Assembly (NCBI GenBank): GCA_030692925.1
Contig: JAUYBY010000023.1
Location: forward strand, 22,612 to 86,611
Origin: Candidatus Zixiibacteriota bacterium
Lineage (GTDB): Bacteria > Zixibacteria > MSB-5A5 > RBG-16-43-9
Direction: 5' to 3'
Length of the DNA stretch: 64,000 nt
Position numbers and translations under genes: made by a program. Positions 1-61,466 of this stretch are shown piece by piece. The notes under the pieces are model-generated. The model was not told the DNA's origin, searched no databases, and saw only the letters and a program-made list of their open reading frames with translations. The first letter of the stretch is position 1, and every line of letters starts with the position of its first letter.

Positions 1-408
1 GAGGGTTACTGCCCAACCCATCGCCGGATTTTACCTGAGGATATCCTGAAAAGGAAAGCCCTATATCCTAAAGCGGAGGTGATAGTCCATCCCGAATGTA
101 TTCCTGAGGTTATCGCTATGGCGGATAAGGTCCTCTCCACTACCGGCATCTGCAAATATGCTAAAGAATCCAACTCCGAGGAGTTCATAATAGGAACAGA
201 GATAGGGATTTTGCACAAGCTGAGAAAGGAAAATCCAGAGAAAAGATTTTACCCAGCCTCAGAATTAGCTGATTGCCCGAATATGAAGCTGAATAACCTG
301 GAGAAGATTTTATGGTCCCTGCAGGACTTAGTATATAAAGTAGAAGTTCCAGAAGAGATCGCGAGAAGGGCTAAAAGGTCGATCGACCGGATGTTAGAGA
401 TTGTTTAA
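1..408 (+). CDS. nadA: Quinolinate synthase NadA, C-terminal part (5' end lies outside the window)
   Basis: The frame is open from nt 1 (EGYCPTHRRILPED...VIVHPECIPEV...). The cysteine/histidine motifs and the VHPEC region are typical of NadA. ORF-track entry 79..408 is its internal-Met version. Confidence 0.75.
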   Translation, partial: EGYCPTHRRILPEDILKRKALYPKAEVIVHPECIPEVIAMADKVLSTTGICKYAKESNSEEFIIGTEIGILHKLRKENPEKRFYPASELADCPNMKLNNLEKILWSLQDLVYKVEVPEEIARRAKRSIDRMLEIV

Positions 409-592
409 ATAGAGGAAATAGGTTCCTGAAGAATTGAAAAGGATTGTCGGGCAGGGGTGCCCGACCTACGAGAGAATAGCACCTTTTATCACGTAGGCGG
501 GGCTCCCAGCCCCGTGAAACAAGTCTTTCTGAGTTTTGCTAAAACCTTTCAAAAGAGAGTGGAGTTAGTCTCCACCTTTTTAGTTTTAGGAT

Positions 593-1435
593 TTGACTAT
601 GCCAGAACTGCCTGAAGTTGAAACGGTTGTCCGCGGGTTAAGGAAAACGGTTTTAGGCAAAAAAATTAAAAGCCTGAAAATTTATCCTTCCAGAGTTCTG
701 CACAGTTCCCCCGCATTCTTAAAGAAGAATTTGATCCACCAAAGGATTCAAGAGATAAGCCGAAGGGGAAAAAATATAATCATCAAATTGTCCAGTGGTG
801 ATCTACTGGTGATTCACTTAGGCATGACCGGAAATCTGTTTTATCTGAATAGACCGGCTTTTATGGGCAAGCATGACCATATAGACTTGGAATTCTCTGA
901 CAGAACTTACCTGAGATATAGCGATATCAGAAAATTCGGCAAATTCAAGCTGGTAAAGTCGTCTCAATCTGCCAAGGAGGAGGTTCTAAAAAAGTTAGGA
1001 CCAGAACCATTAGAGATATCCAGAGATGATTTTGTCCAGCTTTTGCAGAAAAAAAAGGGAAGGATTAAATCGGTTCTTTTGAATCAGTCTATTATCGCCG
1101 GGATTGGAAATATCTATGCGGACGAGGCTTTGTTCGAGGCTAAGATCCATCCTCTGCAGAAGGTGTCTGATATCAGTCGGAATGGGTTAATAAAACTACA
1201 TCAGGCGATTCAGAAGATCTTAAGAAAAGCTATAAAAGCTGGCGGTTCCTCAGTTGACAACTATCGAGATGTGAACGGGGAAAGCGGGTTTTTCCAATTC
1301 TATCACAAGGTCTACGGCAGAGAAGGAGAACCCTGTAAAAGATGCGGCACCAAAATCAAAAGGATAATCATAAACCAGCGCTCAACTCATTTTTGTCCCC
1401 AATGTCAGAAAAAAAGTAGGGGTTCCAAAATTTGA
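593..1435 (+). CDS. mutM: Formamidopyrimidine-DNA glycosylase (Fpg/MutM)
   Basis: N-terminal PELPEVE catalytic motif, H2TH region and C-terminal CxxC...CxxC zinc finger; about 280 aa. Confidence 0.9.
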   Translation: MTMPELPEVETVVRGLRKTVLGKKIKSLKIYPSRVLHSSPAFLKKNLIHQRIQEISRRGKNIIIKLSSGDLLVIHLGMTGNLFYLNRPAFMGKHDHIDLEFSDRTYLRYSDIRKFGKFKLVKSSQSAKEEVLKKLGPEPLEISRDDFVQLLQKKKGRIKSVLLNQSIIAGIGNIYADEALFEAKIHPLQKVSDISRNGLIKLHQAIQKILRKAIKAGGSSVDNYRDVNGESGFFQFYHKVYGREGEPCKRCGTKIKRIIINQRSTHFCPQCQKKSRGSKI

Positions 1436-1586
1436 GCCCCTACCTATGTCCAAATAAAAAAGGAGTACAAAAATAAATGGAGGTCTAAAGACCTCCGCTG
1501 CAAAAATAAAAACAAAATAGACCCGGGTTGTGGTTCTTCCTGAATGACAACCTGGGTCTATTAACTATTAAGCTCTTAAAAACTTC

Positions 1587-2354
1587 TTACACCTCTTCTT
1601 TCTCCAAAAAGAGGTTCCTCATCAGCTCGTCGATCTTCTCGATGCGGAAGGGCTTGGATAAATATCCGTCCGCGCCCTCGTTTAAGGCTTTGTCCTCCGG
1701 GTAGGCGTTGGAGTATCCGGTGATCATTATCACCGGAGTTTTAAGGTTCTTCTCCTTAATCCTCTTTATCAGGGTTATCCCATCCATATGGGGCATCTTG
1801 ATATCGGTGATGATCAGATCAAAAGGCTGCTCCTGCAAAATCTGCCAGGCTTTTTCACCATCCTCAGCCGCAAAAGGAAGATAATCCAGAGAGGAAAGGG
1901 TGTCGATGAGCATATTCCTCAGAATCTCGTCATCATCTATCACCAGGATCCTTTTAAGAGCAGACCTTTTTTCAGGCTCCGGTCTTTTGTGTCCCATAAG
2001 ATTCTGGATTGCCTCCTCGATCTTTCCAATGCGGAAGGGCTTTGCCAGAAAGCCGTCTGCTCCTTTCTGCAGCGCCTGTTCCATAGTGTAATTGAAATTG
2101 TAGCCGGTAATAAGCAGGACTGGCAGGGATGGGTTTTTTGCCTTAATCGATTCCAGAAGAGAAAAGCCGTTCATCCTGGGAAGCTTGATGTCAGCTATTA
2201 CCAGATCCATCTTCTGCTGGTCTAAAAGGGTCAAAGCCTCTTCTCCGTCCTTGGCTCCGAAGGTGTTGTAACCCAGGGCGGATAAAGTGTCGATCATCAG
2301 CTGACGAACCTTCTCCTCGTCATCCACGATCAAAACCTTCGTCCCTTGTTTCAT
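1587..2354 (-). CDS. Response regulator with two tandem receiver (REC) domains and no output domain
   Basis: Two repeats of LIVDD...D...MP..GF/DG...K....P..ITGY, the CheY-like receiver signature. Confidence 0.8.
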   Translation of the reverse strand: MKQGTKVLIVDDEEKVRQLMIDTLSALGYNTFGAKDGEEALTLLDQQKMDLVIADIKLPRMNGFSLLESIKAKNPSLPVLLITGYNFNYTMEQALQKGADGFLAKPFRIGKIEEAIQNLMGHKRPEPEKRSALKRILVIDDDEILRNMLIDTLSSLDYLPFAAEDGEKAWQILQEQPFDLIITDIKMPHMDGITLIKRIKEKNLKTPVIMITGYSNAYPEDKALNEGADGYLSKPFRIEKIDELMRNLFLEKEEV

Positions 2355-2448
2355 ATGGACCTCGAGTTTGTGGGTGTGAACTTAAGTCTCCATATCTTTT
2401 TATCGTATTTTTTTGAGATTACTTGAGGAGATACAGAAAAAAACTGAT

Positions 2449-2503
2449 TGTGGTTGCCCAATTTATTGGGCTTATTTTAAGCTCGATAAATCGAGCAACT
2501 ACA
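2449..2503. repeat. REP-like palindromic doublet (TGTGGTTG-CCCAATttATTGGG ... GCTCGATaaATCGAGC-AACTACA)
   Basis: Same unit family as at 15412-15466, 15653-15706, 25805-25945 and 26385-26520; conserved GTAG/CTAC ends. Confidence 0.7.
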
Positions 2504-2655
2504 GGCAGCCTCCAATTTCACGGGCTTCCAAAAAATGCAAAGGAAAAGTCGGGCAGGGTGCCTGACCTATGAAGAGTCATTATTTCACATCAGAGATACT
2601 ATTTGGAGCTATGGGGAACTGACACCTCGTCCTCACAGGAGTGAGGACGCTACAA

Positions 2656-4032
2656 TCATCTGGAACGGATAAGGTTCAAAACCTCAGATTTCTTTTGCTC
2701 TAATAACTCTTTTGTATTTGCCTCTAAGTTAAGTCTAAGCAGAGGCTCGGTGTTGGAGGGCCTTAGGTTGAACCACCAGTCAGGATATTCTATGGTTATA
2801 CCGTCCAGGTGGTCGATTTTAGCGTTCTTATACTGGGATTCGATTGCCTCGAGCTTCTTCGGGACATTTTCTACCCGGGAGTTTATCTCTCCAGTCCTGA
2901 AATAATGATCGATAGAACTTACCAGTTGAGAAAGCGGCTTATCCTCTTCGGAGAGAAGCTCTAAACAGACCGAAAGGGCGATCATTCCGGAATCAGCAAA
3001 ATAGTTTTTACGGAAATAGAAATGGCCAGAATGTTCGCCGCCGAAAGTTGCATTATATTTTTTCATCAGGGGTTTGATGAGTGCGTGTCCCACTGGCGTG
3101 CGGATGGGTATCCCTCCGTTTTGCTGAATGACCTCACGAACAGTCCTGGAACAGGGAACATTGTATAATATGGTTGCGCCTTTTTCCTTTTGAAGAAGCC
3201 TCTTAGCCACCAGGGCAGCAACCATATCTCCACCCAGGGTTACTCCCTTCTCGTCTACCAAAAACATCCGGTCCGCATCACCATCAAAAGCAACACCGAA
3301 ATCCGCTTTCTCCTCTAAAATCTTTTTCCTCAAAGGGACCATATTCTCCGGAATCATAGGATTGGGCACGTGGTTAGGGAAAGAGCCGTCCAGTTCAAAG
3401 AACATCGGAATCAGCTTGCAGGGAAGATGGGAGAAAAAATCAGGCAGGACCTTTCCGGCGATTCCGTTCCCGGCATCGGCTACTATTTTAAAGGGCTTGA
3501 TTTTCTGCGGTTCGATAAAAGATAAAAGGTGCTGTATGTAATCGGGCTGGATATCCTGATTTCTGACCTCACCTTTTTTCTCCGGGTTTGAAAAATCTCT
3601 TTTAAGTATGATTTCCTTGATCTGCTCAATCCCCTCTTTGCCACTTAAAGGGACAGCCTCCTCCTTGCACATCTTTATCCCGTTATATTCCGGCGGATTG
3701 TGCGAGGCGGTAATCATTGCTCCGAAATCGTATCCGAATCTGCCAACCGTAAAGTACAGAGCATCAGAAGTGCACAAGCCTATATCTATCGCATCTGCGC
3801 CTGCCTCGGTAATCCCGCGGGCAAGGCTTTTGAACAAGGCATTTGAGGAGAGCCGCATATCCCGACCTATGACCACCATTCTGGGATTAAGATATCGAAC
3901 AAACGCCTTGCCTATAAGGTAAGCCACATCGTTGTTCAGTTCATTAGGATATATACCCCTTATATCGTAAGCCTTAAAGATTGAGAGGTTTATTTTGAAG
4001 TTTTCTTTTTCCATTATCTGCTCCAGTTTCAA
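2656..4032 (-). CDS. Phosphomannomutase/phosphoglucomutase (AlgC/ManB-like, alpha-D-phosphohexomutase)
   Basis: FKAYDIRG N-terminus, TASHNPPEYNGIK active-site serine loop and four-domain length. Confidence 0.85.
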   Translation of the reverse strand: MKLEQIMEKENFKINLSIFKAYDIRGIYPNELNNDVAYLIGKAFVRYLNPRMVVIGRDMRLSSNALFKSLARGITEAGADAIDIGLCTSDALYFTVGRFGYDFGAMITASHNPPEYNGIKMCKEEAVPLSGKEGIEQIKEIILKRDFSNPEKKGEVRNQDIQPDYIQHLLSFIEPQKIKPFKIVADAGNGIAGKVLPDFFSHLPCKLIPMFFELDGSFPNHVPNPMIPENMVPLRKKILEEKADFGVAFDGDADRMFLVDEKGVTLGGDMVAALVAKRLLQKEKGATILYNVPCSRTVREVIQQNGGIPIRTPVGHALIKPLMKKYNATFGGEHSGHFYFRKNYFADSGMIALSVCLELLSEEDKPLSQLVSSIDHYFRTGEINSRVENVPKKLEAIESQYKNAKIDHLDGITIEYPDWWFNLRPSNTEPLLRLNLEANTKELLEQKKSEVLNLIRSR

Positions 4033-4897: not shown

Positions 4898-6121
4898 CTT
4901 CTTTATCCCCGGTATCAAAAACCCGGTTAATCCACCCAGGGCAACTAAAACTCCACTTAAGAATACAATCATCTGGACGTGTAAAAGCCCTCCCATAACT
5001 CCTACCAAAGCTAAAGAGATCGGTCTTAAGCCTCCGCTAATTGTTCCAAGAGTGCCGAAGACCCGGCCTTGTTTCTCGTGTGGTATTTTGGACTGAAACA
5101 CGACCGGGACTAAGATGTTGGCAAAGGAGAACCCAAACCCGCACCCGCCCAGAAGAAAGATCGAGGTCCAGAAGGATTCCGAGACCCCGAACAGGGCTAA
5201 AAAGGACCCAGCTACAACTATTCCTATCATTATAAAGGTTCCTTTTCTTCTAACTCCGCCAATCATCCCGAGGAAAAGGCTGCCCAGAACCATTCCTACA
5301 GAGATGCTTGAGCCAAGCACCCCGAATCCCTCTGCTCCCATCTTCAATATCTTCTTAACCATCAACGGGATTAAAACCCCTACCGGAGCCACGAAGAAAT
5401 TCAGCACGGAGAATAAAACCACAAGCCCCAGTATCCCTGACTCTTTACGGATGAAATTCAGACCATCCATAAGCTCCTGCAGGAATCTTTTTCTTTCCTC
5501 TGAAGGAAAAACCTGCTCAACTTTGACTCTCACCAGGAATATGGCGATAACCGAGACGAAAAAGCTTAAAGCGTCCAAAATCATTACTGTTCCAGTTCCA
5601 AATAAGGCTACCAGTGCTCCCCCTAAAGCGGGCCCGATAATCCCGCTCAAGTTACTGCTCATCTGAGAGATCGAATTAGCCCGGACTAACTGCTCCTTAT
5701 TTACTATCACCGGTAGGAATGAGGCTAAGGCGGGGTTAAAGAAGGTTGACATAGATGAAAGGAAGGCTGCGATTACAAATATGTGCCAGACCTGAAGTTG
5801 ATTCAAAAAGTAAAGCACTCCAGGTACAGTGATCAGCACCCCACGCCCCAGGTCCATCAGGATCAAAAGCCTCCTTTTATCCACCCGGTCAACGTATGTT
5901 CCAGCAAAAGGTCCCAGGATGATGGCAGGCAGGGAAGAGCAGATAGCCACAGTAGCCATAGCGGCAGTGGAGCCGGTTTTTTCCAGGACCCACCACATCA
6001 GGGCTATTATATACAAGAAATCGCCGACCACTGAGATAGTCTGGCCTATCCAGATTGAAAAGAAATTCAGATTCCGAAAAATCGAACCATAGCCCCGGTT
6101 TTTTTCCTGCAAACTTTCCAT
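4892..6121 (-). CDS. MFS transporter (EntS/macrolide-efflux-like)
   Basis: About 12 predicted TM helices, G-rich MFS motifs, 409 aa. Confidence 0.75.
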   Translation of the reverse strand: MESLQEKNRGYGSIFRNLNFFSIWIGQTISVVGDFLYIIALMWWVLEKTGSTAAMATVAICSSLPAIILGPFAGTYVDRVDKRRLLILMDLGRGVLITVPGVLYFLNQLQVWHIFVIAAFLSSMSTFFNPALASFLPVIVNKEQLVRANSISQMSSNLSGIIGPALGGALVALFGTGTVMILDALSFFVSVIAIFLVRVKVEQVFPSEERKRFLQELMDGLNFIRKESGILGLVVLFSVLNFFVAPVGVLIPLMVKKILKMGAEGFGVLGSSISVGMVLGSLFLGMIGGVRRKGTFIMIGIVVAGSFLALFGVSESFWTSIFLLGGCGFGFSFANILVPVVFQSKIPHEKQGRVFGTLGTISGGLRPISLALVGVMGGLLHVQMIVFLSGVLVALGGLTGFLIPGIKKL

Positions 6122-7219
6122 TTATCTATTATCAATTCTCAGTTTAAAAATATTTTCTCCGGTTTTCAAATCGAAGAATAAAGCTTTATCCAAATTGAAA
6201 GATAATTCTGAGAAAATCCCGAGATGAAGGTTTTCATAAAATCTTTCCCTGGTCACTAATTTCTGGTCTCCGGCTTTAAAATAAAGGAAAGCCTCAGCGC
6301 CGACAGGCTCGATCTGCTCTAACTCAAATTTCAGATTCTGGCTTTTTCCAGCAATCCGGACATCTTCAGGTCTTATTCCCAGGCAGATTTCCCTGCCGGC
6401 GTACGCTTTCAAATCCTCCTCAAATTTCCCAGGGAGAGAGAGTCTACTCCTGTCCCCAAAGGTAAATTCCAAAGAAGAGGTTAGAATACCTTTAAGCAGA
6501 TTCATTGAAGGCGTTCCTATGAAGGAAGCAACAAAGATATTAGAAGGTGAACTGTACAACTCAAAAGGTGCTCCGATCTGCTGAATAGTGCCTTCCTTCA
6601 AAACCAGGCACCTATCACCCAGGGTCATAGCCTCTAACTGGTCATGGGTCACATATACGACAGAGGTCTTTAAGCTTTTGTGAAGTTTTAAAAGCTCCCC
6701 TCTCATCTGGACCCTGAGAAGAGCATCTAAATTGGACAAGGGTTCATCAAAAAGAAAAAGTTTTGGTTTTCTGACTATTGCCCTGCCTAAAGCCACCCTT
6801 TGTCTTTCCCCTCCAGAAAGAGCTTTGGGTTTTCTCCGAAGTAGCCCACCCAATCCCAGAATGTCGGCAGTCTCACAGACCCTTAGTCTGATTTCCTCTT
6901 TTGAATATCCTCTGAGTTTCAAGGGAAAAGCAAGGTTCTCAAAAACTGTGAAATGAGGGTACAGGGCATAGTTCTGGAAAACCATAGCCACATCCCTTTG
7001 TTTAGCTGGGAAGTGGTTGATCAGAATTCCATCTAAATAAATCTCTCCTGTGGAAACCTCCTCCAATCCTGCTATCATTCTCAAAATGGTGCTTTTGCCG
7101 CAGCCAGACGGACCTACCAGCACGAAAAACTCGCCTTCTTCCACCTCGAAGCTGATATCCTTCAAGACCTGATTTTTGTCAAAATACTTGTTTACTTTAC
7201 TGAGCTGGAGTTTAGCCAT
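6122..7219 (-). CDS. ABC transporter ATP-binding protein, MalK/UgpC family with C-terminal TOBE-like domain
   Basis: Walker A GPSGCGKST, signature LSGGERQRV, Walker B LFDEPLSNLD, about 120 aa C-terminal regulatory domain. No cognate permease in the window. Confidence 0.85.
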   Translation of the reverse strand: MAKLQLSKVNKYFDKNQVLKDISFEVEEGEFFVLVGPSGCGKSTILRMIAGLEEVSTGEIYLDGILINHFPAKQRDVAMVFQNYALYPHFTVFENLAFPLKLRGYSKEEIRLRVCETADILGLGGLLRRKPKALSGGERQRVALGRAIVRKPKLFLFDEPLSNLDALLRVQMRGELLKLHKSLKTSVVYVTHDQLEAMTLGDRCLVLKEGTIQQIGAPFELYSSPSNIFVASFIGTPSMNLLKGILTSSLEFTFGDRSRLSLPGKFEEDLKAYAGREICLGIRPEDVRIAGKSQNLKFELEQIEPVGAEAFLYFKAGDQKLVTRERFYENLHLGIFSELSFNLDKALFFDLKTGENIFKLRIDNR

Positions 7220-7368
7220 AGTTAAAAAGAATTTGATTTATTATATATTTTGATCTTCAGATTGGCAAGGTATTAAAAAGGATTTTCTTAAAAATTTAGT
7301 TATTTGACTTTTTCTTCATCTTGTATCTGAAATTACATTTTTTTCTATGGAAAAGTTCTAAGATTTGC

Positions 7369-7397
7369 TTGACAAGTGATTTGGAAGCCTTATAATG
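7369..7397 (+). promoter_or_regulatory. Consensus sigma70 promoter TTGACA-17-TATAAT
   Basis: TTGACA at 7369-7374 and TATAAT at 7392-7397, upstream of the 7434 CDS. Confidence 0.65.
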
Positions 7398-7433
7398 AAA
7401 TTGAAAAACTAAGGAAAAATCTCTTGGGTTTTT

Positions 7434-9185
7434 ATGAGTAATTTAAGGTCCTTGTCAAAAATTACCTTAATCCTATTGTTGTTAGGGTCTGGATGTGCCG
7501 TTAATCATTCCCTCTCTAAAAAGGGATTGACCCGAGAACAGAAAACCACCTTAAACTATCTAAAAAAAGCTGGTGCAACTAAGGCTGAATTGGATACTCT
7601 ATCTATTCTTTTAAAAGCTGATACTTCTCCAGCAAAAATTCAGAAAAAAATTGATCTTATTATCCGAAGAAGCCTATCCCGGCTTTCTTTAGAACAAAAA
7701 GCAGTTTATTATTCTCTAAGAGAAGAGGAGCGTCTGGAATATCTGGCGGCTCCTGATAAAGAGAGATGGATAAAAAAAAGAGAAGATAGGTCAGTTAAAA
7801 AACTGTGCAGCACCAGGGAAGGAAAAACCCAGTATTATGCACTAAAAAACCTTCTTTCAAAAGAGGATCTGAAGGATTTTGTCAAAAAGGATTCTACTGA
7901 GAGGGTCGAGTGGCTCAAGAGCTTCTGGGCTAAAAGTGACCCTACTCCTACTACAGAAAGAAATGAATGGGAGGAGGAGTTTAACCGGAGAGTAAGGCAC
8001 GCTTTAGAAAATTTTCATTCTACTTTTGGACAAAAACCCTGGGATGATCGGGGCGATGTCTACATTAAACTGGGACCGCCGGATGAACGAAGATTATCAG
8101 TAGAAAATCCTTCGAAGTTTAGGATTGAGAGGATAGGAGATTCAGTCTATGATACCGAACGCGAGTATTATAAAACTGCAGGAGAGACCTGGTATTACGT
8201 AATAGAAGGAAAAGACGTTTACCTCCAATTTGAGGATCTCGTTGTCGGTTATTTAACCCTTGTCCCTTATAGGTCAGGAGACATTCGGGATCTTGATTAC
8301 ATGTCTAACTTTCTTGCTCAGAATGGCGAGCTGGGGTTAAGTAAAGCGGTATACCATCACGATTACGGTGGCGAGCCTTTAGATTTTGCCTGGGAGATTA
8401 TCAAATTCCGGAGTCTGAATAATGTTTATGAAGTCCTGGTCAATGTAGGAATACCGACTGGCAAGTTAGAAAAAGACTCATCGGGCCTGGTCCATTACAA
8501 CCAACAGATTGCTATTAGGGATGAAAAAGGCAAATTTATTTACTGTGATTCTGTCAGGGTCTGTCAAAGAGTGCCTGATTTTAAAAATCAACTTCTTATC
8601 GATCAGAGAGGATTTCTTTTAACCCCTGGGACATATAGCGTGGCTCTTGAGGTAAGAGATCCAGGAAGTAAAAGGATTGGCTTATATGAAGATGAACTTT
8701 TCTTGCCTGGTTATGTTTCCCCGGATTCATTGCATCAGCCAAACTTAGAGCTCAGCCGGGCTATTCTGGCATCGGAGGCAAAAGAAGCGCAACCAGATGA
8801 GGAGGAAAGTAAATTCTTTTTAAATGGATACCTGATTATTCCAAATCCAAGCCATATCTTTTTGGTGGAACAGGAGCCAAAAATTAAAGCCTATTTTGAA
8901 ATCTACAATCTTTTACCTAAAGATGATTCATTAAGGTTCGCAACCATTTCCCAGATAATAAAATATGTCAGTAAAGATTCAGCAGTGGTAAGTTCTGATA
9001 CAACAGTAACAATCCATCCAGGATTTGTTCCAGGAACTGTTGCCTATCAGATTATACCCTTAATAAATTCTCCCGGGCTTTATCTGGAACCAGGTGATTA
9101 CCTCTGGAGAATCGATGTAATTGACCTTAATCTTCCCAATAAGATTGAAAGCATAGTCAACAAATTGAAAATCGTGAAAGATTAA
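7434..9185 (+). CDS. GWxTD-domain lipoprotein
   Basis: Signal peptide with lipobox LLGSGC. The motif KPWDDRGDVYIKLGPPDE matches the GWxTD-domain signature (GWxTDRG..yI.yGpPD). Confidence 0.6.
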   Translation: MSNLRSLSKITLILLLLGSGCAVNHSLSKKGLTREQKTTLNYLKKAGATKAELDTLSILLKADTSPAKIQKKIDLIIRRSLSRLSLEQKAVYYSLREEERLEYLAAPDKERWIKKREDRSVKKLCSTREGKTQYYALKNLLSKEDLKDFVKKDSTERVEWLKSFWAKSDPTPTTERNEWEEEFNRRVRHALENFHSTFGQKPWDDRGDVYIKLGPPDERRLSVENPSKFRIERIGDSVYDTEREYYKTAGETWYYVIEGKDVYLQFEDLVVGYLTLVPYRSGDIRDLDYMSNFLAQNGELGLSKAVYHHDYGGEPLDFAWEIIKFRSLNNVYEVLVNVGIPTGKLEKDSSGLVHYNQQIAIRDEKGKFIYCDSVRVCQRVPDFKNQLLIDQRGFLLTPGTYSVALEVRDPGSKRIGLYEDELFLPGYVSPDSLHQPNLELSRAILASEAKEAQPDEEESKFFLNGYLIIPNPSHIFLVEQEPKIKAYFEIYNLLPKDDSLRFATISQIIKYVSKDSAVVSSDTTVTIHPGFVPGTVAYQIIPLINSPGLYLEPGDYLWRIDVIDLNLPNKIESIVNKLKIVKD

Positions 9186-55852: not shown

Positions 55853-55949
55853 CTTTCCCTCCCTGAAAAAAGGTTTTTATGTGAGGATATGTTATTGTTT
55901 CTAAAAGGGATTGTCAAGATAAAGTTGAGTTGAGAAATTGGTGAACCTT

Positions 55950-56200
55950 ACGAGTTATTGCGAGCCCAGTTGGGCGAAGCAATCCGTTTACTCTGAAGGG
56001 ATTGCCGCGTCGTCCTACAGACTCCTCGCAATGACAGACTATGAGAGGCAATTAGCGTTAGCCCCACATTGCCCGCAACATGGGTCAGTCTTCTCGGAAT
56101 GTGGAAAAGCACCCTGTGTCATTCTGAGTTCCGCCGAAGGCGGAACGAAGAATCTCCTTCTTTCGCTGTAGATTCTTCGCTTCGTTCAGAATGACAGGTA
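55950..56200. repeat. Hairpin-rich intergenic block (TGTCATTCTGAG-TTCCGCCgaaGGCGGAA-CGAAGAATC ... GATTCTTCGCTTCGTTCAGAATGACA)
   Basis: Nested inverted repeats; ORFs 56085..56423 and 56119..56316 overlap them and are doubtful. Confidence 0.5.
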
Positions 56201-56315: not shown

Positions 56316-57269
56316 ATGTTCAAAAATTTCGCAATTACCGGCGTGGCAGGGTATGTAGCGCCGAGGCATCTTAAGGCGATAAAGGAAACAGGCAACAGAT
56401 TGGTCGCAGCAGTTGATCCGCATGATTCGGTGGGTCTTTTAGATAGCTATTTTGAAGACGTGCGTTTCTTCACCGAGTTCGAGAGGTTTGACCGGCATAT
56501 TGAAAAGCTTCGCCGGCAGGGTGAGGACCAGCGTGTACATTACGTCAGCATCTGCTCTCCTAATTATCTGCACGATGCTCACTGCCGTTTTGCTCTACGA
56601 GTCGGTGCGGATGTTATCTGCGAAAAACCGGTGGTCTTAAACCCCTGGAATATCGATGCTCTGCAGGAGTTAGAAAAGGAGAGCGGAAAAAAGATTTTCA
56701 CGGTTCTGCAGTTGCGGGTACACCCTTCTCTGATTGCACTTAAAGAGAAATTACAAAAAGAAAAGTCAAGTTTCAAAAAAGAGATTATCCTTACATATGT
56801 TACTTCCCGTGGTCTTTGGTATCTGGTCTCCTGGAAAGGCCAGGCGGAGAAATCCGGCGGCTTAGCCACAAATATCGGAATTCATTTCTTTGACCTTTTG
56901 CTCTGGCTATTTGGAAAAGTAGAAGGTTTTGAGGTCCATCTTGCCACACCGACCAGAACTGCAGGCTATATGGAGCTTGAAAATGCCAGGGTGAAATGGT
57001 TTTTGTCAATCGAGAAAACAGACCTGCCGGAAGAGTGTAAAAGCAAAGGCAAAGTAACATTCCGCTCAATCACTATCGACGGGCAGGAAGTCGAATTCTC
57101 AGAAGGGTTCACCGATCTGCACACTATCGTTTATCGGGAGACCCTGGCAGGCAGAGGATTCGGCCTGGCAGATGCCAGACCCTCTGTGGTCCTGGCTCAT
57201 GATATAAGAAATGCCGAGATAATCGGGGTTAATGAGAATTCGCATCCGTTGGTGAAAAATCTTAAGTAA
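56316..57269 (+). CDS. Gfo/Idh/MocA-family NAD(P)-dependent oxidoreductase
   Basis: N-terminal Rossmann motif FAITGVAGYVAPRHL and the EKP motif (ICEKPVV). Confidence 0.85.
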   Translation: MFKNFAITGVAGYVAPRHLKAIKETGNRLVAAVDPHDSVGLLDSYFEDVRFFTEFERFDRHIEKLRRQGEDQRVHYVSICSPNYLHDAHCRFALRVGADVICEKPVVLNPWNIDALQELEKESGKKIFTVLQLRVHPSLIALKEKLQKEKSSFKKEIILTYVTSRGLWYLVSWKGQAEKSGGLATNIGIHFFDLLLWLFGKVEGFEVHLATPTRTAGYMELENARVKWFLSIEKTDLPEECKSKGKVTFRSITIDGQEVEFSEGFTDLHTIVYRETLAGRGFGLADARPSVVLAHDIRNAEIIGVNENSHPLVKNLK

Positions 57270-57382
57270 CTTTTCCTCTAAGTAGTTAACTACAAGTTTT
57301 GGAGTATAAAGGTATAGTTTATTATCAAGTTACATAGCCGAGACATGACTTTTAAGAATGTTTTTTTAAAATACAAGTTGGC

Positions 57383-57721
57383 TTTTAATATGTATATATA
57401 CATATTAAAATAGTACATCCATTATACACGATAACATATTAAGCTATTATAGAACAATGAATTAGAATGCTATTATCATAAAATATGGAGCATATTATGT
57501 AGTATATATACTACATAATATGCATAAGATATTTGCGTGTAAAAAAAAATTAAGCAAAAGTTGAAGATTTCTCTTGACAATTTGACTATAATGTATATAT
57601 ACATTATAGTCTTTATCTAATACGGAATCAACTGATCTACTAAGGTGTTAAAACTTAATAACTTAGTCCGGATAACTTAACATAAATGATGGCTTTTATT
57701 ATTGTATATATACAATAATAA
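57383..57721. promoter_or_regulatory. Array of four perfect 26-32-bp palindromes sharing the core GTATATATAC, at 57383-57410, 57491-57522, 57584-57611 and 57696-57721
   Basis: Centres are 110, 91 and 111 bp apart. Palindrome 3 forms the 17-nt spacer of a TTGACT-17-TATAGT promoter (57582-57610), and palindrome 4 lies 20 nt before the AbiEi-like start. Confidence 0.7.
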
Positions 57722-57741
57722 GAAACTTTTACTCCTAATTA

Positions 57742-58628
57742 TGCCACGTATTAAGAAAGAAGATATCTTAAAAATCGCTAAGAACGATATAATAGAATTA
57801 CTTGATAATCTACCTTCTAAAATCCTGAAATATTCTGATCTCGAGAACATTCTATTAATAAACAGAAAAAATTGGCGTGTTACTACTACTACCACCGTCA
57901 ATGAATTCATTTCTTTTCTATTAGACCAAACAAAACTTAAGGAAGCAAAATTTAATTTTCCTTATCGTCCTGAACTAAGGTATATCTGGGGTGAAGTATC
58001 TAATTACGAATTAATTATGTCATTGAGGCCTGACTCCTATTTTACACACTATACTGCTATGTATTTGCATGAAATTACAGAGCAAATTCCAAATACCTTT
58101 TACTTAAATTATGAGCAATCTCCCAAGCGGAAGCATAAAGAGAACTTGGAACAAGATCGAATCGATTCTGCCTTCAAACGTCCAGTTAGGTCATCGAAAA
58201 ACATTGCATTCTACAACAATTTTAAAATATGCCTGCTGAATGGTATGTATACCGGCAAGCTGGGAGTAGTTGAAATTCTTGGGTTACAACGAGAGAAAAT
58301 TCGAGTCACAAATATAGAGAGAACACTTATAGATATTACTGTTAGGCCTGAGTACTCTGGAGGTGTTTTTGAGGTTTTAAAGGCTTTTCAGTTTGCCCAT
58401 GATAACGTATCGATAAACAAGCTGACCGCCATGTTTAAAAAACTGGATTATACTTATCCTTATCACCAAGCTATTGGATTCTATCTTGAGAAGGCAGGCG
58501 TTTATAATCAATCCCAAGTAGATTTACTATGCAAGTTTGATTTTGAGTTCGACTTTTATCTTACTCACCAAATGAAAGAAACCGATTATTCCAAAAAGTG
58601 GCGACTATACTACCCCAAGGGCCTCTAA
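57742..58628 (+). CDS. AbiEi-family (type IV TA / abortive-infection antitoxin-like) transcriptional regulator
   Basis: Start taken at MPRIKKEDIL, the internal Met of ORF 57702..58628. SYFTHYTAMYLHEITEQIP resembles the AbiEi_4 motif (S.ESAL..HGL..Q). The AT content is far higher than in neighbouring genes. Confidence 0.5.
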
Positions 58629-59486
58629 TTCTTTACATTTGTTTGCTACATAATCAAAATAAAAATCGAAATCTCTTAACTCTGTACTTGTTTTAACAGT
58701 ATCTTTTACGGCAGGAAAATCTGAACGATGAAATTCTTTATAGTTTTGTATGTTACCAATAAATTGTAGTGGAACCTTTTTGGCTGTAAATATATTCTTT
58801 AAGAGTTCAGTATTCTCACTCGTTGTGAGATCAATTCCGAAATGTTCAATAGTAATATAGATATCAAAGAAATCCCTTGCCCTTGCTGATCTTGATGGTT
58901 CTGTAACTATGTCAGCGTATTCTGGCATTTGCTGGCAGATAGCTCTCAGCTTTTCTATGACGATCATTTCAGGGGTATAAACATAAATAGTATATCCATC
59001 AATCTCATGCTTCTGTTTTGGGATGCAATACTCAAATTTACTGATATCGATCTTAATTTTTCTTTTTTGTTTATTGCCAACCACTAAAGCATTGCGTCGT
59101 AAAGAATCGATTTTATCAGACAGTCGGGCATAGTCTCCTGACTCTATAATTTTGAACTCAACCTGATATCCTCCCCAAAAACCAGCCATTTCTGGACTGA
59201 TCTTTTCTGGTTTTTCGACAAGGGTAACATCGAAAACCTCGTAGCCTTCTGCTTTAAATGTTTCTTTCAGAATCTTTTGAATTTTGGATTCAATAATAGG
59301 GAGGTCTTCTTGCCTAAACTCTTTCTCAATTGAAAAGTCGAGATCAACTGAGGCGCGGTGTTCGATCTGGTGAATTATATCAAGAGCATTCCCACCCTTC
59401 AAAACCAGCATATCCATTAGGTAGTCATCAGAAAACATAGCGATTATAACAAGCCTTTTGATTTTTCGGAGAAATTCAGTATCCAA
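58605..59486 (-). CDS. AbiEii/AbiGii-family nucleotidyltransferase toxin (DUF1814)
   Basis: LKGGNALDIIHQIEHRASVDLDFS matches the LxGGTAL...R.SxDIDF NTase motif; convergent with the AbiEi-like gene, overlapping it by 24 nt. Confidence 0.75.
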   Translation of the reverse strand: MDTEFLRKIKRLVIIAMFSDDYLMDMLVLKGGNALDIIHQIEHRASVDLDFSIEKEFRQEDLPIIESKIQKILKETFKAEGYEVFDVTLVEKPEKISPEMAGFWGGYQVEFKIIESGDYARLSDKIDSLRRNALVVGNKQKRKIKIDISKFEYCIPKQKHEIDGYTIYVYTPEMIVIEKLRAICQQMPEYADIVTEPSRSARARDFFDIYITIEHFGIDLTTSENTELLKNIFTAKKVPLQFIGNIQNYKEFHRSDFPAVKDTVKTSTELRDFDFYFDYVANKCKELEALGVV

Positions 59487-59573
59487 AGGTTATCCTTTTG
59501 ATTGCTTTTTCTTCAGACCTGAAAGGAGTATCACGGATTCTACTCGGGAGATTAAAAATAACATTCAAAAAAC

Positions 59574-59956
59574 TGGAGGCGGTGGGAATCGAACCCACGT
59601 CCGAAGATAAGAACTAAAGGACTTCTACAGGCTTAGCTTAGTCTTTTTTCCTTCCCGCTTTTGGCAGGAGGGACTTTCGCTCCAGGAAAGACCGACAAGC
59701 AGGTCTAACCCAGAACTATCCCGGTTTTGTTTCGCCCTCTTCCCCCAGGAGATAGAAGAAGGCTATCCTGTTTTTCTCGACGCCTTAGCCCAAACCAACA
59801 GGCAGGCTCAGGTAAGACGAGCTACCTTTTATTAGGCAGCCAATGCATACGAGTATTCGTTTGCATTTAGATTTGTTCCCAATGGATTAACGAGGTTACT
59901 GGGTACCTCGGCCTGCTTTCCTTTACCCTTGATCCCCGTCGAAACCGATCGCCCCC
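59574..59956 (-). ncRNA. ssrA: tmRNA (ssrA), tag peptide (A)ANEYSYALAA
   Basis: 5' end GGGGGCGAUCGGUUUCGACGGGGAUCAAGGG and 3' end GGACGUGGGUUCGAUUCCCACCGCCUCCA (tRNA-Ala-like T-arm and acceptor). Tag ORF GCAAACGAAUACUCGUAUGCAUUGGCUGCCUAAUAA. CCA is not encoded. Confidence 0.9.
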
Positions 59957-60037
59957 AAGAAAGTGGCTTAAGTCCTAATAAAATATACGTATAAATATGA
60001 GAAATTCAACAGAAATTTTGGGTAACCGAGAAAAAGG

Positions 60038-60065
60038 TTGACAAAAATATAGGCAATTGTAAATT
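60038..60065 (+). promoter_or_regulatory. Putative promoter TTGACA-16-TAAATT for the M16 peptidase operon
   Basis: Sequence ggTTGACAaaaatataggcaattgTAAATTgg. Confidence 0.4.
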
Positions 60066-60125
60066 GGATACCTTAGTGTAAGGTGAAAACAAGTTTATAA
60101 CTGTACATCTAATCAAGGAGAGGAT

Positions 60126-61466
60126 ATGAGCAAAAAACAAAGTTTCAAGGTAAATATGTTTTCTTCTCTGCTCCTGGTTTTAATTCCCCTTTTTTCTCTT
60201 CTGGCTCAAGAACTCAAACTGGACATAAAGAAAAATGTCCTGGATAACGGGCTGACCATTTTGACCTGCGAGGATAAATCCGCACCCACGGTTTCCTATA
60301 TGACCTTTATAAATGCTGGCTCCCGTGAGGAAAAGCCAGGAATTACTGGATTAGCTCACATCTTCGAGCATATGATGTTCCGGGGAACCAAAGAATACCC
60401 GGACTTTGATAAGGCGATAACCTCATTCGGAGCGCAGACCAATGCCTCAACTGGTGAGGATTACACCTCTTATTTTGTGAATGTGAAGAAGGATTATCTG
60501 GAAAAGATAATCCCGATCGAGGCAGATAGGGTGAGAAATTTAGTCTTTACTAATGAGGCTTTCCGAATGGAGATGGGTCCGGTTAAGGAAGAAAGGAGAA
60601 GGGGTGTGGTGGATGATCCGGATGGTTTTATCTGGGACGAGCTGGTCCAGACCGCTTACCAGGTGCATCCTTATCACCATCCGGTAATAGGTTTTGAAGA
60701 GGACCTGGAGAAAAATATCCAGGTTCAGGATGGACTGGATTTCAAGAGGAATTTCTATTCTCCTGGATATACCACCATCGTCTTAACCGGCAATTTCGAT
60801 ACTCCGAAGGCATTGGAGTTGATAAAAAAGTATTACGGGGACTGGCAAAAGACCCCTCCGCCTGATCTCAACATACCGGCTGAGCCAAAGCAGACCAAGG
60901 AGAGGGTGAAAAATTACGTGTGGAAGGATTCTGAGATCTCTCCCAAGCTTTTAATCGCTTTTCACGGGCCCAATTTTGAGATAAAAGATGACGATTTTTG
61001 CGCGCTGGAGCTTGCAGCCCGGATTCTGTTTATGTCCTCAGGTAGGCTCACTAAAAAGCTCTACAATGACCTGCAACTGGTTGAATATATCTCCGGCGGA
61101 ATGGGGGATAGAAAGGACCCGGGGCTTTTCGAGATCAGCACGTCTTTAAAAAGGGGAAAATCGATAGATGAGGCGAAACCCCTGATCTTAGAGGAGCTGG
61201 AAAAACTGAAAAATGAGCCGGTCTCGGAAAGAGAGCTGGAAAAAGCCAAAAACTCCGTAAAGGCTGAGATGATCTACCGGATGGATAACCCGCTCTCGGT
61301 TGCTTATACAATCGGGCATTTTCAGACAGCAGGTGGCGATTACAATCTGCTTTTCGAGATTCAGAAGAAATACTCGGAAGTGACTCCGGAGATGATTCAA
61401 CAGGTGGCAAGGAAATATTTCAATCCTGAGAACAGGACTGTGCTTACCTTATTACCCAAGAAGTAG
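60126..61466 (+). CDS. M16-family zinc peptidase (active subunit, HxxEH)
   Basis: Signal peptide and HIFEHMMFRGT inverted zinc-binding motif. Confidence 0.85.
   Translation: MSKKQSFKVNMFSSLLLVLIPLFSLLAQELKLDIKKNVLDNGLTILTCEDKSAPTVSYMTFINAGSREEKPGITGLAHIFEHMMFRGTKEYPDFDKAITSFGAQTNASTGEDYTSYFVNVKKDYLEKIIPIEADRVRNLVFTNEAFRMEMGPVKEERRRGVVDDPDGFIWDELVQTAYQVHPYHHPVIGFEEDLEKNIQVQDGLDFKRNFYSPGYTTIVLTGNFDTPKALELIKKYYGDWQKTPPPDLNIPAEPKQTKERVKNYVWKDSEISPKLLIAFHGPNFEIKDDDFCALELAARILFMSSGRLTKKLYNDLQLVEYISGGMGDRKDPGLFEISTSLKRGKSIDEAKPLILEELEKLKNEPVSERELEKAKNSVKAEMIYRMDNPLSVAYTIGHFQTAGGDYNLLFEIQKKYSEVTPEMIQQVARKYFNPENRTVLTLLPKK

Follow-up and report, generated by a model that had tools for sequence, protein, structure and literature searches.

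A 64-kb stretch of the genome of a Candidatus Zixiibacteriota bacterium (contig JAUYBY010000023.1), hereafter called the window, carries an AT-rich islet next to ssrA, the gene of the transfer-messenger RNA (tmRNA). In this islet two genes, one for an AbiEi-like antitoxin/regulator and one for an AbiEii-like toxin, run toward each other and share a short stretch at their 3' ends (Table 1; positions here and in the text are those of the window). AbiE has been described as a bicistronic operon, with the regulator gene placed ahead of the nucleotidyltransferase (NTase) gene (Dy et al., PMC3985639). The window pair, being convergent with a 24-nt overlap, does not have this same-strand order, and an original prediction made from the sequence had recognized this departure. 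How should such a locus be understood: as an abiE operon that was rearranged and is decaying, perhaps within an island targeted to ssrA, or as an AbiE system organized in another way? Our analysis points to the second answer. The pair is AbiE by protein content but non-operonic by organization, and we therefore file it as a member of a non-operonic AbiE lineage, with a predicted multi-palindrome operator array, which appears to be undescribed in the literature searched. We consider it probable that horizontal transfer brought in the segment as a two-gene cassette of this non-operonic kind, an AbiE-type toxin-antitoxin or abortive-infection system working as in the five-step proposal developed below. 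At the scale of the window alone, the finding is an ordinary one, namely a defence or addiction cassette occupying a variable slot.

Table 1. Coordinates of the cassette, its palindromes and its borders
Feature	Position	Strand	Remarks
abiEi-like antitoxin/regulator gene	57741-58628	+	295 aa; N-terminal winged helix and C-terminal domain of Rv2827c size; from PADLOC AbiEi and fold
abiEii toxin gene	58605-59486	-	DUF1814 nucleotidyltransferase, 293 aa; TTG start, AAGGA Shine-Dalgarno; Pfam PF08843, E=5.9e-25
Antisense overlap of both 3' ends	58605-58628		24 nt, codon-aligned; toxin stop TAG is antisense of the CTA codon of AbiEi Leu289 (invariant)
P1, perfect 28-bp palindrome	57383-57410		TTTTAATATGTATATATACATATTAAAA
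P2, perfect 34-bp palindrome	57490-57523		Holds the full family consensus ATGTAGTATATATACTACAT
P3, perfect 28-bp palindrome	57584-57611		Overlaps both hexamers of sigma70-like TTGACT-17-TATAGT (57582-57610, +)
P4, perfect 26-bp proximal palindrome	57696-57721		Centre 57708.5, ~32 nt before the ATG; overlaps promoter-like TTAACA-17-TATTGT (57677-57705)
Toxin 5' region	59487-59567	-	81 nt; no palindrome, weak promoter-like sequence only; directly downstream of ssrA, same strand
Strain-specific cargo segment (islet)	57270-59567		Between the Gfo/Idh/MocA stop codon and the T-run of the probable ssrA terminator; from the alignment break with relatives and GC content
Gfo/Idh/MocA oxidoreductase gene	56316-57269	+	Conserved left flank of the slot
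ssrA (tmRNA)	59571-59956	-	Tag ANEYSYALAA; conserved neighbour outside the cargo

A convergent, overlapping layout found in many phyla

One genome per species was scanned, and among 185,579 species genomes 482 loci related to the abiEi cassette were detected; the layout counts rest on 80 of these, which were fetched. They belong to Zixibacteria, Aminicenantes, Planctomycetota, Desulfobacterota, Anaerolineae, Dehalococcoidia and Ignavibacteria, as well as to Bordetella, Piscinibacter sakaiensis, Advenella, Hymenobacter and others. An AbiEii gene was found beside the abiEi homolog in 77 of 81 loci, and every one of these pairs was convergent. Wherever a fetched locus had a toxin match, the toxin gene lay directly after abiEi, always on the opposite strand, with an overlap of 24 nt in 54 cases, 27 nt in 10, 39 nt in 6 and 4 nt in 8. 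The exact 24-nt overlap was already present in the first contigs viewed, namely those of an uncultured bacterium, a 187-kb Zixibacteria contig and Aminicenantes single-cell genomes. No co-directional abiEi/abiEii pair was seen among the loci examined.

The cassette occurs in unrelated contexts, including defence islands and small plasmids. In the contig of the uncultured bacterium the pair is found next to OLD and NERD genes. Locus L001 has the cassette surrounded by genes for an OLD-family ATPase/TOPRIM protein, a NERD-helicase and PD-(D/E)XK proteins (1-3549 and 5809-8876), a defence-island context. On plasmids, convergent pairs were found with an overlap of 24 nt (12.4-kb plasmids of Burkholderia pseudomallei), 49 nt (a 9-kb MobV plasmid of Bacillus subtilis), 14 nt (Riemerella) and 10 nt (Veillonella), while on pPSMK1 of Phycisphaera mikurensis the genes converge without overlap, across an 8-nt gap. 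Relatives of approximately 33% identity, on plasmids of Streptococcus suis (pBM407), Staphylococcus aureus and Lactococcus garvieae, are divergent and share an intergenic region of approximately 200 bp.

The original prediction, which had described the convergence and the 24-nt overlap correctly, proposed rearrangement as one origin of the layout and took the islet for a possible old remnant. A once co-directional abiE operon would then have undergone a local inversion or rearrangement and would now be decaying. This agrees with the bicistronic, regulator-first organization of the described AbiE systems (PMC3985639), and with a site that has neither integrase nor att repeat. Neither part of the proposal survives the comparison. 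Dozens of loci share the layout, most of them down to the 24-nt overlap; they come from Zixibacteria, Aminicenantes, Planctomycetota and Desulfobacterota, from Bordetella, Piscinibacter and Hymenobacter, and from plasmids. In the window, both open reading frames are intact with all their motifs, catalytic ones included, and the conserved array of predicted operators is in place. These data already refute the rearranged-remnant explanation, and we give it practically no weight. The convergent, 3'-overlapping layout is instead a family trait of a widespread AbiE branch.

Full-text searches found no description of a convergent, tail-to-tail or divergent arrangement for AbiE, DUF1814 or COG5340 within the searchable literature. 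The branch, present in approximately 480 of the 185,579 species genomes and on plasmids of B. pseudomallei, B. subtilis, Riemerella, Staphylococcus and S. suis, breaks the definition of AbiE as a bicistronic operon. Cultured carriers are available: P. sakaiensis 201-F6, Bordetella species, P. mikurensis and the B. subtilis 9-kb plasmid.

Identity and state of the two proteins

The prediction of an AbiEi-like/AbiEii-like pair held for both genes. For the toxin, the Pfam match to PF08843 is clear; PDB searched by sequence gave a marginal match only, to AbiGII (9HLO_B, E ~0.01). The motifs essential to AbiEii are hG[GS]x15DhD (I/II), motif III and motif IV with DxxD (Dy et al., PMC3985639), and with these definitions motifs I-IV of the window toxin are intact (G31-G32-x15-D48-L-D50, EKLRAICQQ and RARDFFD), each being at least 90% conserved among 67 intact homologs. 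The terminal Arg of motif III is replaced by Gln in the clade of the window toxin. The stretch R44-A-S46-V-D48-L-D50 is an instance of R-x-S/T-x-D-x-D, which is likewise at least 90% conserved in these homologs, and Ser46 has the same spacing as the phosphoacceptor T65 in R63-x-T65-x-D67-x-D69 of Streptococcus agalactiae AbiEii.

The partner protein is less easily recognized. Its score with Pfam AbiEi_1 is below threshold (14 bits for a cut-off of 22.2), and PDB sequence matches are marginal (E ~0.2; 6Y8Q and 9HLO_A), so that a fold comparison was needed for its identification. The PADLOC AbiEi profile PDLC02267 matches it over nearly its full length (1.6e-21, residues 27-302). An AlphaFold model built on 29 homologs (predicted local distance difference test (pLDDT) 93.6, predicted template modelling score (pTM) 0.89) has as its best PDB matches S. 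agalactiae AbiEi 6Y8Q (E=2e-8) and Mycobacterium tuberculosis Rv2827c 1ZEL (template modelling (TM) score 0.60, over the whole chain); DUF1814-type transferases come next. Judging by this model, the plus-strand protein is a two-domain member of the AbiEi family, of the long, Rv2827c-like size class. The possibility raised at the outset, that it might have no AbiEi similarity, is thus set aside by PADLOC and by the fold. It is 100% identical to a protein of a Zixibacteria metagenome-assembled genome and has thousands of relatives of approximately 291 aa, the top matches being 55 to 66% identical; no homolog was found among 50,697 phage genome records.

The start of the gene had been placed at 57742, which is one nucleotide out of frame; the ATG is at 57741. 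In abiEi homologs, gene callers often place the start inside the proximal palindrome, as with the TTG at 57702 in the window and in homologs P0009, P0014 and P0053. False N-termini of the kind 'MYIYI...' result, and the alignment backs the ATG at 57741.

Loci whose toxin is more similar to that of the window tend to have a more similar antitoxin as well (r=0.68 for the two identities). Among the 76 loci not cut by a contig end, the toxin was intact in 64, split into two frames in 7, reduced to its 3' end in 3 and absent in 2; in other words, it was broken or missing beside an intact antitoxin gene in 12 of 76. This pattern of decay is as expected if the partner is indeed an antitoxin.

The pair also falls into an annotation gap. 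NCBIfam has no model for either protein, and the partner of AbiEii is usually a 'hypothetical protein' in RefSeq; with the Pfam score being sub-threshold too, the antitoxin may be overlooked or given a wrong partner by tools that work from Pfam or NCBIfam models or from operon logic.

A separate observation concerns plasmid pSULFM1 of Sulfurimonas aquatica (L098, 227-2574), where the head-to-head neighbour of an AbiEi-like gene (27% identity) encodes a HipA-family toxin, and where the annotation of the displayed stretch has no AbiEii gene. Regulators of this family may thus have swapped partners.

An array of perfect palindromes ahead of abiEi

The 471 bp upstream of abiEi contain four perfect palindromes of 26 to 34 bp with the common core GTATATATAC. 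The only copies of this core in the whole 64-kb window are the four at 57392-57713, whereas 0.01 would be expected. The palindromes, which span 57383-57721, were absent from the original prediction.

They are a feature of the family. With arms of at least 10 nt, 182 palindromes were found upstream of abiEi and 5 anywhere else in approximately 81 loci of ~6.8 kb each; in the same set, none was upstream of the toxin gene. Statistics on 200 distinct sites from 71 loci gave 2 to 5 palindromes per locus (mode 3), with arms mostly of 14 to 16 nt. The spacing between neighbouring centres has its mode at 109 to 115 bp and a minor mode near 80 bp (L008-L087 and L092). The core differs between clades: it is GGCATGCATGCC in Piscinibacter/Ideonella, GGTACGCGTACC in Hymenobacter, ATTATATATAAT in a further clade, and GCAGCG..CGCTGC in the Burkholderia plasmids, where the 111-bp spacing is kept despite the different core. 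The divergent Firmicutes plasmid relatives (33% identity) keep the same GGTATATATACC core, sited between the two genes.

Promoter-like sequences are associated with the proximal site. Upstream of proximal palindromes, -35-like hexamers pointed toward abiEi in 44 cases and the opposite way in 13; distal sites had no such bias. On the B. subtilis plasmid the promoter is of textbook form (TTGATT-17-TATAAT), and its -10 lies within a palindrome arm. It is known that AbiEi binds two 23-bp inverted repeats and that Rv2827c binds four (PMC7319586). The best reading of the palindromes is that they are predicted AbiEi operators, because the core co-varies with the protein, because promoter and palindrome overlap, and because AbiEi and Rv2827c offer a precedent for the binding of long inverted repeats; P4 is then the probable main operator of abiEi. 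A search for the core sequence found nothing relevant within the searchable literature.

Other roles were considered and rejected. The palindromes do not look like bidirectional terminators, their flanks being without the A-run/T-run layout (at position 14, the left side favours T and the right side A), nor like RNA hairpins, G-U pairs not being favoured (~1%). Small open reading frames between the palindromes are short and AT-rich, start inside palindromes, and were judged spurious. A 10.5-bp periodicity of the spacing, which would correspond to helical phasing, is weak (R=0.27, uncorrected p ~1e-4) and is driven mostly by the 109-115 bp mode; we do not rely on it. A spacing quantized in steps of 28 bp was unconvincing (R=0.23).

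Free sequence and near-perfect symmetry in the palindrome arms

Counted from the centre, positions 2-5 of the palindromes are invariant and positions 6-10 semi-conserved (consensus ATGTAGTATA|TATACTACAT, the bar marking the centre). Positions 11-13 hold only 0.04 to 0.16 bits of information, and yet the arms are complementary there in 94 to 95% of sites. All four Watson-Crick pairs are used, and the mutual information is 1.45 to 1.62 bits, compared to 0.03 to 0.08 after a one-column shift. Symmetry is 0.92 at position 14, where T is found in 59% of sites, 0.71 at position 15 and 0.48 at position 16. In a pair-counting test on 150 sites, 95.2% of positions were paired, compared to 66.3% after shuffling; the covariation score was 0.694, compared to 0.134 for shuffled sites (0 of 500 shuffles reached it) and 0.07 to 0.17 for slid controls. 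G-T (G-U) pairs, at ~1%, were no commoner than other mismatches. As they are not favoured, the symmetry constraint would bear on both strands, that is, on DNA rather than on one RNA. The arms differ between the palindromes of one locus, and between close relatives orthologous palindromes have undergone double changes that compensate each other (L016/L019/L020, L013/L017 and L061/L063/L080/L081). The lineage thus offers approximately 200 natural variants of a predicted operator in which DNA positions covary in textbook fashion, an uncommon property for a repressor site.

Two candidate explanations of this symmetry are left: selection on DNA structure, or mutational homogenization by template switching. 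In bacteria, the correction of quasipalindromes by template switching is a recognized source of mutations. The symmetry could accordingly be a by-product of mutation, one arm being copied onto the other at the replication fork, with a core selected by the protein and outer arms free of selection. Free sequence combined with near-perfect symmetry is what this process would leave. Occasional very long perfect palindromes are in line with it (64 bp in L029 and 46 bp in L051), as are the slow tail of excess symmetry, to approximately position 22, and the mostly transition-type first mismatches of the arms (G-T 53 and A-C 43 of 200). On the other side stand the sharp drop of symmetry at positions 14-15 and the narrow mode of arm length at 14-16, which point to a functionally defined unit of 28 to 30 bp, and the sequence preference that position 14 has of its own. 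We regard this explanation as possible, with the balance against it.

Alternatively, the palindromes may act through DNA structure in addition to sequence, by extrusion of a cruciform or hairpin favoured by the AT-rich centre. AbiEi or RNA polymerase would respond to the extruded form, and abiEi expression would become sensitive to supercoiling or single-strandedness, for instance during phage attack or plasmid entry. The covariation and its compensated double changes, with different arms in one locus, the low information of positions 11-13 and the scarcity of G-T pairs all speak for this, as do the central 2 nt, which may be asymmetric and loop-like, and the folding of single strands (z-scores of -4 to -6). 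Stable cruciforms at physiological supercoiling would, however, normally call for arms longer than these 13 to 17 bp, known AbiEi proteins bind linear duplex inverted repeats (PMC7319586), and the symmetry could be mutational rather than selected. We hold a structural role to be doubtful.

The longest perfect palindromes, which greatly exceed the usual 28 to 30 bp, are built around the same core. That of 64 bp in L029 lies at approximately -171 from abiEi, and L051 has two, of 46 bp at -190 and of 44 bp at -142.

A proposal for the working of the cassette, and the control of the toxin

The proposal favoured here combines the motifs, the sites and the layout. AbiEii would be an active DUF1814 nucleotidyltransferase toxin; the motifs are observed, and work on MenT and AbiEii suggests tRNA 3' ends as its target. 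AbiEi would bind the 26-34-bp palindromes before its own gene through its winged helix, as S. agalactiae AbiEi and Rv2827c do with their repeats. With the proximal palindrome overlapping the promoter, this binding would repress transcription of abiEi itself. The toxin gene, before which no palindrome is found, would be transcribed from a promoter of its own, free of operators, and the synthesis of toxin and antitoxin would be uncoupled. AbiEi would then neutralize AbiEii after translation, most likely via autophosphorylation of Ser46, the equivalent of T65, for which an autophosphorylation model of AbiE exists (bioRxiv 10.64898/2026.01.19.700257). In addition, since neither gene is followed by an intrinsic terminator, the transcripts of both are likely to extend antisense into the opposite gene, and transcription of abiEi would then damp the toxin further, by transcriptional interference or as antisense. 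When the 400 nt behind each stop codon were searched, terminator-like sites turned up in 5 and 8 of 67 loci, for approximately 10 expected by chance; conserved intrinsic terminators are thus at or below the chance level after either stop in this set. Control of an antisense or occlusion type, which the original prediction had named beside rearrangement, is plausible.

Four points weigh against this proposal. The nearest protein in size and fold is Rv2827c/MenA4, for which the literature reports an absence both of toxin interaction and of toxin phosphorylation, and the Ser46 step may be wrong. The toxin-side promoter of the window is weak by consensus, and read-through from ssrA, which ends 88 nt upstream of the abiEii start on the same strand, could drive expression instead; the family has no common motif ahead of the toxin start, and sigma70-like promoters are clear in some clades only, such as Pirellulales. 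Rho-dependent termination is compatible with the lack of intrinsic terminators. Finally, a repressor that plainly reads sequence leaves the uninformative and yet complementary arm positions 11-13 unexplained.

A different weighting of the same elements would make control of the toxin mainly a matter of RNA, in a type I-like or excludon-like fashion. The abiEi promoter, strong and open to de-repression, would drive convergent transcription that silences abiEii through colliding polymerases or duplex RNA, and protein-level antitoxicity would be secondary. The design would resemble that of convergent restriction-modification gene pairs. It would give a meaning to a 3' overlap that is obligatory and conserved, to the lack of terminator enrichment after either stop, and to a toxin side without operator. 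Opposed to it are the divergent plasmid relatives of S. suis, S. aureus and L. garvieae and the non-overlapping pair of Phycisphaera pPSMK1, whose existence shows that the pair can do without the antisense overlap, and also the C-terminal antitoxin domain of AbiEi, which is fully conserved among homologs. We therefore judge a mainly RNA-level control unlikely and keep neutralization by the AbiEi protein as the central step.

A bolder combination would join both departures in a two-part principle undescribed for toxin-antitoxin systems, with palindromes serving as sensors of topology or single-strandedness and a toxin partly checked by head-on transcription. If it held, structure-selected palindromes would be cruciform- or hairpin-forming operators, whose invariant AT-rich centre governs the antitoxin promoter, and once abiEi transcription was lost, for instance because a phage shut it off or because host DNA became relaxed, the toxin would be freed at the RNA level and at the protein level alike. 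This we regard as speculative and quite improbable.

Whatever its details, a toxin and an antitoxin placed on opposite strands, with a predicted operator before the antitoxin only, challenge the assumption of coupling in toxin-antitoxin regulation. The lineage makes it testable how such a pair stays balanced without transcriptional coupling.

Relation to known systems

The closest described systems share parts of this organization. AbiE of S. agalactiae and Lactococcus lactis (type IV, recently proposed as type VII) has, like the window pair, a DUF1814 NTase with motifs I-IV, the R-x-S/T-x-D-x-D phosphoacceptor context, and long inverted repeats upstream of abiEi, which in the window are predicted operators. 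It differs by its bicistronic operon with a 4-nt 5' overlap, compared to convergent genes with a 3' overlap, and by an antitoxin shorter by approximately 100 aa (~15% identity). It also has a single pair of 23-bp repeats, compared to 2 to 5 separate perfect palindromes of 28 to 30 bp spread over 100 to 800 bp in the window lineage, where, unlike in AbiE, the toxin gene would lie outside the operator-controlled promoter.

Rv2827c-Rv2826c (MenA4-MenT4) of M. tuberculosis resembles the window pair by the size of its antitoxin (293-295 aa), by its fold (1ZEL, TM 0.60) and by several inverted repeats before the antitoxin gene, which in M. tuberculosis are four operator repeats within -1 to -131 (PMC7319586) and in the window are predicted operators. 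The two genes nevertheless form a co-directional operon (PMC7319586), antitoxin identity is only ~10%, and the repeats are imperfect and closely packed, unlike the window palindromes. For MenA4-MenT4, the literature gives no mechanism of neutralization and reports that the two proteins do not interact and that the toxin is not phosphorylated. In type VII toxin-antitoxin systems more generally (MenAT1/3 and AbiE), the antitoxin induces autophosphorylation of the toxin, and the phosphoacceptor Ser or Thr stands two residues before the first catalytic Asp, the place that Ser46 has in the window toxin.

SanaTA, RlegTA and SdenTA (COG2253-COG5340) also combine a DUF1814 toxin with a COG5340-like antitoxin in a non-canonical gene order. 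The antitoxin gene of RlegTA is described as downstream of the toxin gene, and SanaTA has anti-T7 activity. Unlike the window pair, they are described with the toxin gene first, and their antitoxins are much shorter (136 to 205 aa); no opposite-strand arrangement is stated for them in the text consulted.

As to layout, excludon and convergent restriction-modification pairs also place two functionally opposed genes on the two strands, let their 3' ends overlap and give each a promoter of its own. Such a layout lets one partner be expressed first or interfere with the other. Their proteins are unrelated to those of the window, and the analogy is one of layout only.

A variable slot between two conserved neighbours

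The AT-richness announced for the islet is marked: the GC content is 0.24 to 0.38 over 57250-59500, compared to 0.42 to 0.50 in the flanks, and averages 0.329 for the cargo and 0.454 and 0.436 for the two flanks. The tmRNA was located at 59574-59956 (-) by ARAGORN and at 59571-59956 by Rfam (RF00023, 201 bits); it was the only Rfam family found in 57000-60200 with a permissive E-value. Three long contigs of related Zixibacteria (L088, L089 and L090), whose Gfo/Idh/MocA homologs are 90 to 96% identical, served to place the borders. Alignment with them ends at 57268, in the stop codon, and restarts at 59564-59567, 6 to 10 nt outside ssrA, at the T-run following the tmRNA acceptor stem. These borders nearly coincide with the predicted span (57270-59573) and bear out the abutment on the ssrA 3' end.

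The four genomes have four different cargos between identical breakpoints. The slot of L088 (3.35 kb) holds Ymh, a GHKL ATPase (HATPase_c_3), a Dcm methylase and Vsr; that of L089 (2.3 kb) holds an extracytoplasmic function (ECF) sigma/anti-sigma pair, and that of L090 (0.5 kb) a DUF559 gene. Since close relatives hold unrelated cargo in exactly the same place, the slot is a strain-variable hotspot. The refuting case named in the original prediction, the same genes at this position with native composition, was thus not found in these relatives.

The ssrA 3' end is a common integration site of genomic islands, and the islet could be the eroded end of a classical, integrase-driven island of this kind. 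It abuts the 3' end of ssrA, both sides of ssrA vary among relatives, and, as in such islands, strain-variable DNA of foreign composition lies directly 3' of the gene. No integrase or recombinase gene was found in the islet or in the slots of the three relatives, however, and the ssrA 3' end has a single match in the whole 64-kb window, with no second copy even at up to 3 mismatches, which agrees with the absence of integrase and direct repeat noted in the original prediction. The junction sequences of the four genomes have no repeat in common. An att duplication would moreover place the restart of homology inside ssrA, whereas it lies outside, and in each of the four genomes the left border falls precisely on the neighbouring gene's stop codon. 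The label of an ssrA island fits this slot only loosely, as a hotspot with neither integrase nor att repeat, and we consider such an origin very unlikely. Exchange of cargo between conserved flanks looks like the better mechanism: a left border at the stop codon in all four genomes fits homologous recombination of these flanks.

Beyond the ssrA 3' end, 6 to 9 nt (59565-59573) are kept in the relatives and form a T-run on the ssrA strand. This T-run probably belongs to the ssrA terminator, and its conservation would explain why homology resumes slightly outside the gene.

Variation is not restricted to the slot. Upstream of the Gfo/Idh/MocA gene, at 55930-56170, a second small segment of approximately 125 to 240 bp is unaligned in the relatives, in flanks whose DNA identity is up to 97% for L089 and 79 to 87% for L088 and L090. 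The far side of ssrA, corresponding to 59957-60125 of the window, varies as well (6866-9322 in L090 and 9699-10954 in L088). Peptidase_C1 genes, absent from the window and from L089, are found there in L088 and L090, between ssrA and the M16 peptidase gene, and the gene of L090 also has a dockerin domain.

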